From Theionarchaea archaeon (GTDB taxonomy: Archaea; Methanobacteriota_B; Thermococci; Methanofastidiosales; SZ-28-30): a stretch of 64,000 nucleotides of DNA. The notes beneath the pieces are model-generated. The model had not been told where the DNA came from and searched no databases. It saw nothing but the letters and a program-made list of their open reading frames with translations. The first letter of the stretch is position 1. Every line of letters starts with the position of its first letter. The DNA is taken from the NCBI GenBank assembly GCA_018992685.1, contig JACVGT010000003.1:32001-96000 (forward strand), written 5' to 3'. Shown here piece after piece: positions 51,328-51,482 of this stretch. Position numbers and translations under genes: made by a program.

Positions 51328-51482
51328 GGAGGAAAGGAGGATAGAACTGTGTGTCTATCTAAATACTGGGTGTCTGCTGTAGTTCTGGCTATATGCCAGG
51401 AAGCTGCAGCGTAGCTGTTCGCGAAGAGCGGACAGAGAACGCAGTAGTCCCTTTCTCCTCCTGATTTTGAGGAGGTGGAAAG
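51328..51482 (+). promoter_or_regulatory. candidate structured 5' leader RNA (riboswitch/attenuator-like)
   Basis: TATA AAAACTTATATA at ~51294-51304; long basal stem, two hairpins, and an anti-RBS able to pair with the GH3 RBS. Confidence 0.5.

Follow-up and report, generated by a model that had tools for sequence, protein, structure and literature searches.

Does the 372-nt intergenic region in front of a GH3-family gene in an uncultivated archaeon encode an RNA that gates translation, and, if so, which part of that RNA does the gating? Few cis-regulatory RNAs are, to our knowledge, known in archaea, and fewer still have been validated. A 2014 paper on the transcriptome of T. kodakarensis describes direct in-vivo evidence for archaeal attenuators or riboswitches as still absent (PMC4247193). 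The locus considered here lies in a stretch of 64,000 nucleotides (the window) from a Theionarchaea archaeon, situated on contig C5 of a genome of 3.03 Mb in 45 contigs (G000). A sequence-only reading had proposed that the leader folds into a long outer stem enclosing two hairpins, and that the 3' strand of this stem might instead capture the ribosome-binding site of the GH3 gene, the whole acting as a translational switch. The genes and promoter elements framing the leader are:

48972-51110: gene for a CDC48-type AAA ATPase, which precedes the 372-nt intergenic region and then GH3
51280-51293, no strand assigned: palindrome TGCATGACCATGCA, directly 5' of the BRE/TATA elements, a candidate transcription-factor site
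51294-51305, + strand: A-rich BRE-like stretch and TATA box AAAAACTTATATA, with TTATATA at 51299-51305
51328, + strand: predicted transcription start, a G after a T, 23 nt past the last TATA base, placed by promoter geometry
51483-52991, + strand: GH3-family gene, 502 aa, with the Pfam GH3 N, M and C domains
53003-54496, + strand: B12-binding radical SAM gene, 497 aa, with the Pfam Radical_SAM and B12-binding domains

Only 11 nt separate the GH3 gene from that for the B12-binding radical SAM protein. The NCBIfam models nearest to the two products are lipid-related: OlsH for GH3 (182.6 bits, far under the cut-off of 620) and TIGR04072, "lipid biosynthesis B12-binding/radical SAM", for its partner (221.9 bits, below the cut-off of 360). 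The neighbors of the operon are genes for an HTH protein, hsp20 and cdc48.

By its geometry the promoter is of the archaeal kind, with BRE/TATA elements about 23 bp upstream of a pyrimidine-purine initiator (T, then G51328); a sigma-70 promoter scan, whose model is inapplicable to archaea, returned zero sites. According to the published account of the T. kodakarensis primary transcriptome, the TATA box lies a median of 23 bp upstream of the mapped start, and 5' UTRs have a median length of only 16 nt (PMC4247193). As a conserved block of the GH3 leader opens, with a T-G step, 23 nt past its TATA box, transcription probably starts at about G51328, so that this block would lie at the 5' terminus of a leader of unusual length. 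The leader sequence described here begins at T51327/G51328, behind a promoter-to-leader spacer of 21 nt. Throughout the 11 leaders that we compared the block starts 21-22 nt past the TATA box and the sequence of the intervening spacer is unconserved; the distance is fixed in 10 of them and 1 nt shorter in L028 (with ungapped anchoring on TGGAGG). The palindrome, as TGCA(T/C)-N4-ATGCA, is present in seven of the nine distinct promoters of group 1, to which the window's gene belongs, and its half-site CATGCAAA recurs in the promoter of a paralogous GH3 gene. Within the leader itself we distinguish the following elements:

51328-51362, + strand: invariant 5' block, comprising the purine tract GGAGGAAAGGAGGAT and ACTGTGTGTCTATCTA, the 5' strand of helix P2
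51376-51410, + strand: hairpin GCTGTAGTTCTGGC / GCCAG-GA-AGCTGCAGC, present in the minimum-free-energy (MFE) fold; variable middle domain
51415-51435, + strand: hairpin CTGTTCGC-GAAGA-GCGGACAG of the predicted fold; variable middle domain
51436-51446, + strand: 3' strand of P2, AGAACGCAGTA, pairing with ACTGTGT-G-TCT in the SD-free MFE fold
51447-51462, + strand: pyrimidine tract GTCCCTTTCTCCTCCT, the shared strand and putative sequestor or anti-SD
51463-51469, + strand: loop GATTTTG of the putative sequestor hairpin, varying among orthologs
51470-51485, + strand: translation initiation region AGGAGGTGGAAAG (51470-51482) and the ATG beginning at 51483

The GGAGGTG of the initiation region fits the GGDGRD type of ribosome-binding site given for Thermococcales in the T. 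kodakarensis study (PMC4247193).

Folded without constraint, the leader (51320-51490) reaches -66.9 kcal/mol (z -5.23), and none of 200 dinucleotide shuffles is as stable, which disposes of the concern, voiced in the sequence-only reading, that its fold might be no better than that of shuffled controls; a second shuffle set gave much the same picture (z -5.07, 0 of 300 as stable). The unconstrained MFE structure (-66.6 to -66.9 kcal/mol) contains both inner hairpins, lacks the long outer stem, and has a 12-bp helix between CUUUCUCCUCCU and AGGAGG-U-GGAAAG (initiation-region partner AGGAGGUGGAAAG), i.e., the rival pairing with the GH3 ribosome-binding site that had been postulated. When the SD is forced to be single-stranded, the best predicted fold (-63.7 kcal/mol) is exactly the outer stem of 24 bp (10+4+7+3) drawn earlier: it joins 51328-51356, where GGAGGAAAGG starts at 51328, with the 3' arm AGAACGCAGTAGTCCCTTTCTCCTCC at 51436-51461, encloses both inner hairpins and leaves the 5' end base-paired from nucleotide 2. 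The coordinates and sequences first given for the stem, its 3' arm and the SD region all matched in our sequence check. Because the 12-bp helix uses the same pyrimidine strand as the outer stem, the two folds are mutually exclusive, as had been claimed; the pyrimidine tract has the 5' tract as its partner in the SD-free fold and the SD region in the MFE fold, and some 3 kcal/mol separates the two states. In G000, the duplex that the 5' block core forms with the 3' block is better than 99% of those formed by shuffled 5' blocks.

As a control from the same genome, we folded 165 nt around each of 859 crude SD-led ORF starts. The GH3 leader stretch has the lowest MFE of them all (rank 1 of 859), and freeing its SD costs 3.4 kcal/mol, the genome median being 5.2 (rank 683 of 859). 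Since this energy lies below the genome median, the predicted SD pairing is unremarkable alone, and we rejected SD-masking energy as evidence, such masking being ordinary across the 859 starts. What sets the leader apart is therefore its structure as a whole rather than the predicted SD masking.

A DNA search of 41 related genomes found the leader only in the two other species of the genus, and the GH3 protein itself turned up in four genomes out of the 133 that represent the class, every one from the window's family (the set for the phylum comprises the same 133 genomes). A copy of GH3 with 86% identity is borne by a Theionarchaea MAG contig, and scanning metagenomes with three aligned orthologs recovered at least 19 loci, 12 of those listed being orthologous at 58-71% identity. 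Orthologous loci with upstream sequence number 14, including those of G000, G001 and G002 and excluding L032, which is cut inside the gene; among the matches listed, 12 of these 14 show the motif of the leader, as nine distinct sequences preceding GH3 genes of 58-86% identity. Two loci of an AT-rich lineage, L031 and L036, keep the promoter palindrome and lack the conserved blocks (z -0.37). In a tblastn survey of 11 loci, the radical SAM gene follows GH3 in all eight orthologous loci that extend past the GH3 end (in L015 it begins and the locus stops there), and CDC48 is found upstream of GH3 in 7 of the 11. Within its own genome the leader occurs once, a 363-nt query retrieving only itself below E 0.27, and we accordingly rejected a repeat or mobile element. 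When covariance model R1 was run on four genomes of the family, it found only the three group-1 leaders. Its weak matches, in the alignments shown, are mostly generic initiation-region consensus; one on contig C3 of G000 is the junction before a gene which, from the way its start reads, we take to encode a membrane permease. All leaders found thus belong to GH3 genes from a single uncultivated, family-level lineage (Theionarchaea).

Where the constraint lies can be read from the mean pairwise identities (36 pairs):

Spacer, 21 nt: 0.49
First 36 nt of the leader (5' block): 0.84
Middle: 0.55
Last 48 nt before the ATG (3' block): 0.73
First 300 nt of the CDS: 0.68
Third codon positions: 0.57

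Thus, the noncoding blocks are more constrained than the gene, and two selected blocks flank a middle whose drift is close to neutral. The pyrimidine tract is kept in all nine distinct group-1 leaders, and in alignment A3 the columns of the sequestor loop (151-160) are variable with both flanking arms near-invariant. The larger of the middle hairpins (51376-51410) shows one compensatory C:G to U:A change along with wobble-compatible changes between G000 and G001, and is unalignable across more distant orthologs; folded alone, the middle is better than shuffles in five of nine leaders and no better in four. Hence, the conservation anticipated in homologous leaders is borne out for the two blocks and the three-tract competition (12 of 14 loci; 11 of 11 leaders) but not for the two middle hairpins, whose sequence is unconserved and whose structure is inconsistent. 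The reading as a switch accordingly survives in part: the leader is real, exceptionally structured and conserved, but the middle domain on which emphasis had been laid is not the conserved part.

Eight of the nine distinct orthologous leaders fold better than shuffles (z -2.2 to -5.7); L027 is no better (z -0.45). With the initiation region held free, the MFE structure has 9-26 bp between the 5' and 3' blocks in all 11 leaders, paralogs included, and without that constraint it has 10-14 bp between the pyrimidine tract and the initiation region in eight of them and 4-5 bp in the other three. In these models both rival folds are available in 11 of 11 leaders, separated by a free-energy gap of 1.7-5.0 kcal/mol, and the predicted competition of 5' purine tract, pyrimidine tract and SD recurs in all 11 leaders examined; in silico, then, the leaders possess the mutually exclusive, SD-controlling folds of an expression platform. 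In an RNAalifold consensus of nine sequences, GGAGGAAAGG again pairs with the pyrimidine tract, and a short hairpin forms at the SD; RNAalifold pair counts are by construction blind to broken pairs, so we excluded them as support. In eight of 10 leaders, the 5' block core pairs with the 3' block better than do at least 88% of shuffled versions. An attenuator-like four-strand scheme, in which the 5' block pairs with the middle, was rejected, since it beats shuffled controls in only three of 10 leaders (L025, L033 and L035); this pairing is borderline in L027 and L030, absent in the G000 leader, and not a family feature.

In a model comprising P1 (the outer stem) and P2, the 19 proposed pairs leave 93.9% of alignment cells paired over the nine distinct sequences. 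Ten of the 12 P1 pairs never vary, changes in P2 are one-sided, and only one pair (columns 13:135) changes on both sides, as U-G, U-A, A-U and G-U. The covariation score for these nine sequences and near-invariant pairs was reached by 13 of 500 shuffles; because the paired columns are almost invariant, covariation is here without power. Substitutions between close pairs of leaders, set against single-sequence structures, do not clearly avoid paired positions (P 0.02 to 0.69 in six tests). The tracts are purine-rich on one side and pyrimidine-rich on the other, so several registers can pair, and the 5' strand is invariant while its partner strands drift. Such one-sided conservation argues for a sequence-specific recognition of the 5' block.

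A second version of the leader offers a comparison within the same genome. A search of the genome with the group-1 promoter pattern returned three further sites with 2-3 mismatches, one of which precedes, on contig C12, a paralogous GH3 gene with 31% identity. There, a 22-nt spacer is followed by GGAGGAAAAGACGAGAGACGAGAUACUGUGUGU, a leader of about 150 nt, and CACAGUAUUUCUCUCC just 5' of AGAGGUGAGAGAGAUG. In both G000 and G001 the paralog leader shares the promoter half-site and the start GGAGGAAA(A/G)GA...ACUGUGUGU; the G001 locus is arranged as in G000, and G002 retains the 3' part only, at a contig start. The joint 5'-motif pattern was found only at the group-1 and paralog loci of G000 and G001, with zero occurrences in controls. 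The paralog has GACGAGAGACGAGA as its 5' tract, in which GACGAGA occurs twice as tandem direct repeats, UUUCUCUCC as its pyrimidine tract and GAGAGAGAUG as its initiation region, all three being changed together relative to group 1, with a shift in composition from a GGAGG/GGAAAG type to a GAGAGA type. Duplexes of pyrimidine tract and initiation region are predicted at -17.8 and -12.4 kcal/mol within the groups versus -10.9 and -9.9 kcal/mol across them; the 5' tract of the paralog pairs about equally with the group-1 pyrimidine tract (-20.9) and its own (-20.3). Its SD-free MFE structure has a continuous 15-bp helix of GAGA-C-GAGAUACUGUG with CACAGUAUUUC-UCUC, and in the rival fold the same pyrimidine tract pairs over 9 bp with the spacer and start codon; the two differ by 2.3-3.4 kcal/mol. 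The joint change of the three paralog tracts is the best comparative argument for the proposed three-strand scheme. The paralog leader folds not significantly better than shuffles (z -1.2 to -1.5) and scores 5.7 bits (E 1.9) with the group-1 covariance model; because this score is low, the kinship of the two leaders rests on promoter, spacing, 5' motif and gene family. The leader thus occurs in front of two groups of GH3 paralogs, both from the same family-level lineage, and a third group has a TATA box about 25 nt before the ATG and is leaderless, without the tracts.

We propose, giving it an even chance, that this is a lineage-specific cis-regulatory 5' leader of the GH3/B12-radical-SAM operon that gates translation initiation. 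In this scheme, the first ~35 nt of the transcript would be the almost invariant block, whose purine tract (GGAGGAAAGGA...) would imitate the GH3 initiation region (GGAGGTGGAAAGATG) and could hence be viewed as an initiation-region mimic serving as anti-sequestor. The pyrimidine tract (UCCCUUUCUCCUCCU) just 5' of the SD could pair with either of these two partners. In the putative off state, it would pair over 10-14 bp with the initiation region, hiding the SD and spacer; in the putative on state, it would pair with the 5' tract in a helix extended by P2 (ACUGYKGUGU with RCAGUA) to up to 24 bp, leaving the initiation region free. The off state is predicted to be favored by about 2-5 kcal/mol, from which we infer an effector that, by acting on the invariant 5' block and the P2 junction, would stabilize the long 5'/3' helix and switch translation on. 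Small molecules, proteins and the ribosome are all candidates for this role; what is left of the even chance given to the regulated gate falls to triggering by a protein or ribosome.

A small-molecule effector would make the leader a metabolite riboswitch of a new class, in which the 5' block, an asymmetric purine bulge (GAGAAAA) and P2 form the aptamer together with the 3' block, the variable middle is a peripheral stem, and a ligand related to the GH3/radical SAM pathway stabilizes P1/P2 and frees the SD. We hold this to be unlikely, even though the expression platform resembles those of translational riboswitches, the base of the structure is strongly conserved and its distal domain variable, known families do not match, and the leader is linked to two paralogous GH3 genes and not to the third, leaderless group. 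Speaking against it, the conservation is largely one-sided, with an invariant 5' strand facing internal loops whose 3' side varies; a conserved multi-helix junction was looked for and none found; the distribution covers a single family-level lineage and a single gene family; and covariation support is absent, the pairs being near-invariant, and nothing indicates a ligand. Given these limits and the ordinary SD pairing, a riboswitch is one possibility of several, and a switch operated by protein, ribosome or temperature, or a constitutive leader, fits about as well. The last of these would have the 5'-terminal helix protect the mRNA end or fix a low level of translation, with the 5' GGAGG as a ribosome standby site. 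The very stable fold, the 5' end paired from its second nucleotide in the SD-free structure, the SD-like motif at the extreme 5' end of 11 of 11 leaders, and the commonness of predicted SD pairing in G000 all agree with such a function; nevertheless, a mere stabilizer would need neither a 35-nt invariant sequence nor three tracts changing together in the paralog, and L027 keeps the blocks despite an unstable overall fold, for which reasons we rate it as decidedly unlikely.

The invariance of the 5' strand with drifting RNA partners might alternatively reflect selection on DNA, the +1 to +35 block and the upstream palindrome being an operator for a transcription factor and the RNA pairings by-products. 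That the block begins exactly at the predicted start, that a conserved palindrome adjoins BRE/TATA, that promoter elements are common to the paralog, and that the paralog tract carries the GACGAGA direct repeats are all compatible with an operator. It would leave unexplained, however, why the pyrimidine tract and CAGUAG, 120 nt further downstream, are conserved, why the fold is so stable, and why the SD hairpin has conserved arms and a variable loop; moreover, the block is non-palindromic in most orthologs, and we consider an operator as the reason for the 5' conservation to be very improbable. A still longer shot, to which we attach hardly any credence, is an RNA thermosensor in which temperature shifts the balance of folds and tunes a possibly lipid-related operon beside hsp20 and cdc48. 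Predicted SD accessibility does rise with temperature, the family models closest to the two enzymes concern lipids, albeit with scores below cut-offs, and the HTH gene, hsp20 and cdc48 are neighbors, with CDC48 recurring upstream in the 7 of 11 orthologous loci mentioned above; but the response is gradual and generic, with next to no slope in L016 and L035, the sequestor helix is stable, with 10-14 bp, and unlike a weak zipper, and neither ROSE, fourU nor other Rfam thermometer families match.

Attenuation has likewise been considered. As in leader-peptide attenuation, an SD and AUG at the 5' end (GGAGGAAAGGAUG) open a short frame in six of the nine distinct leaders; unlike in such systems, the AUG is missing in G000, G001, L028 and the paralog. 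The short frames span 8 to 31 codons (as read by eye), and their frame and length vary, with indels of 1-2 nt shifting the frame, so we rejected a uORF attenuator; as the short frame is unconserved, conservation is at the nucleotide level. Transcription attenuation is unlikely, there being neither a conserved oligo-T tract nor a terminator-like site in the leaders. A search for a trans partner of the invariant 15-mer with up to three mismatches gave 45 forward and 57 reverse matches versus 52 and 55 for the control, and hence no sign of such a partner above chance.

The earlier statement that the leader does not, by eye, match the SAM-I, cobalamin, lysine, TPP or fluoride consensus held good: a scan of 50000-53000 of the window with Rfam 15 at E<=10 was blank in the leader and gave a single 15.2-bit lncRNA match inside the GH3 CDS, and five related loci (27,077 bases) gave zero matches at E<=1. 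In searches of the literature on Theionarchaea and riboswitches the leader was not found, and a search for work on archaeal GH3 with radical SAM and B12-binding proteins found no paper.

With its defined promoter and predicted 5' end, the GH3 leader is a compact, testable case in an uncultivated lineage; its two alternative helices are suited to compensatory mutations, and the diverged second copy in the same genome provides a natural control. It also marks the GH3/B12-radical-SAM pair and the paralogous GH3 gene as co-regulated and could thereby guide functional work. As it stands, its interest is moderate, and would be high if a ligand or dedicated protein were shown to bind the leader. A more daring version of our proposal, tentative and with the chances clearly against it, is that the leader represents a new archaeal riboswitch class or a switch run by a dedicated protein, with the 5'-terminal 35 nt and the P2 junction as sensor. 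It would turn on GH3-family amide synthetases and their B12 radical SAM partner, possibly in an aminolipid-type pathway, and the two paralogous operons would constitute one RNA-controlled regulon beside a shared promoter operator.

Among characterized systems, the TPP riboswitch of E. coli thiM uses a translational platform of anti-anti-SD, anti-SD and SD strands. The GH3 leader parallels this platform in that a middle pyrimidine-rich strand is predicted to pair with either the SD or an upstream purine strand, in folds close in energy; it differs in having no known aptamer, in deploying the extreme 5' end of the transcript as competitor, and in its archaeal host. The ROSE and fourU elements are RNA thermometers that mask the SD. 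As in these, a pyrimidine stretch would mask the SD in a hairpin just 5' of the start codon, whereas the GH3 helix is longer and more stable, has a dedicated 5' competitor strand 120 nt away, and is not matched by the Rfam thermometers. Closer in phylogenetic terms are the fluoride (crcB) and preQ1 riboswitch candidates of Thermococcales, whose transcripts have been seen in T. kodakarensis according to the account of its transcriptome; they too are structured 5'-leader RNAs, found in the nearest cultivated relatives (PMC4247193), but their sequence and structure families differ from that of the GH3 leader, which neither Rfam model matches. The GH3 leader, absent from Rfam, would be a new lineage-restricted cis-regulatory structured leader with an SD-masking platform.

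The promoter of the GH3/B12-binding radical SAM (rSAM) operon carries a palindromic element, half of which recurs at the paralogous GH3 locus elsewhere in the same genome; it is listed here with the other features of the two regions:

Window 51280-51293: palindrome TGCATGACCATGCA, adjoining the BRE/TATA of the GH3 operon.
Within window 51113-51233: T/C-rich tract 3′ of the CDC48 stop codon, including a seven-T run (~51153-51159).
Window 51163-51173 and 51223-51233: 11-nt inverted repeat, CATTGTGATGC/GCATCACATTG, between the T/C-rich tract and the GH3 promoter.
L068:1549-1699 (contig C12 of the genome): second leader, upstream of the paralogous GH3 gene.

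The palindrome is retained as TGCA(T/C)-N4-ATGCA in seven of nine distinct orthologous promoters, and is present as a half-site, CATCATGCAAA, in the paralogous GH3 promoter (L068:1505-1526). Judged from these sequences, the element is probably a transcription-factor operator common to both GH3 promoters, and the two loci may therefore form one regulon. The paralogous gene itself (L019:1450-2649) codes for a protein of only 399 aa, in which Pfam recovered the N and M domains and did not detect the C domain; in the ~870 nt 3′ of it (L019:2650-3515) we found neither an rSAM gene nor any plus-strand ORF of at least 90 aa.

Downstream of the orthologous promoters, six of the nine distinct leaders (L016, L025, L027, L030, L033 and L035) bear a ribosome-binding site and AUG at their extreme 5′ end (position 12 of each), and by eye these AUGs open short, non-conserved frames of 8-31 codons, which may be translated in those lineages despite the lack of peptide conservation. 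The leader middles feature two to four copies each of the word (C/U)GUAG(C/G)U (e.g., window 51378-51416; L016, L025, L028 and L030), with CGUAGGU recurring at no more than one mismatch in 8 of 10 middles; this recurrence could stem from internal duplication or represent a repeated protein-binding word. A stretch within the invariant 5′ block is similar to this word. In an AT-rich lineage (L031:2340-2500 and L036, identical in sequence; GH3 60% identical), the palindrome is still present at the promoter of the ~150-nt leader, together with a degenerate remnant, AAAUGAGGAAUA. The conserved blocks are missing from this leader, and no stable fold was found in it (z -0.37). By eye, local AAAAGGU/ACCUUUU and CCUUU/AAAGG hairpins lie close to its ribosome-binding site.

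Directly upstream of the GH3 promoter region, genes for an HTH regulator (378 aa), Hsp20 and a CDC48-type AAA ATPase stand in a row (window 46963-51110), an arrangement that we take to be similar to the Phr-regulated heat-shock gene set of Pyrococcus. The T/C-rich tract is likely the CDC48 terminator.

As for the operon itself (window 51483-54496), a role in acyl-amino-acid or lipid modification can be offered as a lead only. Ornithine lipids are described in abstracts as absent from archaea. The closest curated models are OlsH, a GH3-type lyso-ornithine-lipid synthetase, for the GH3 protein and “lipid biosynthesis B12-binding/radical SAM” for its partner, each scoring far under the cut-off.
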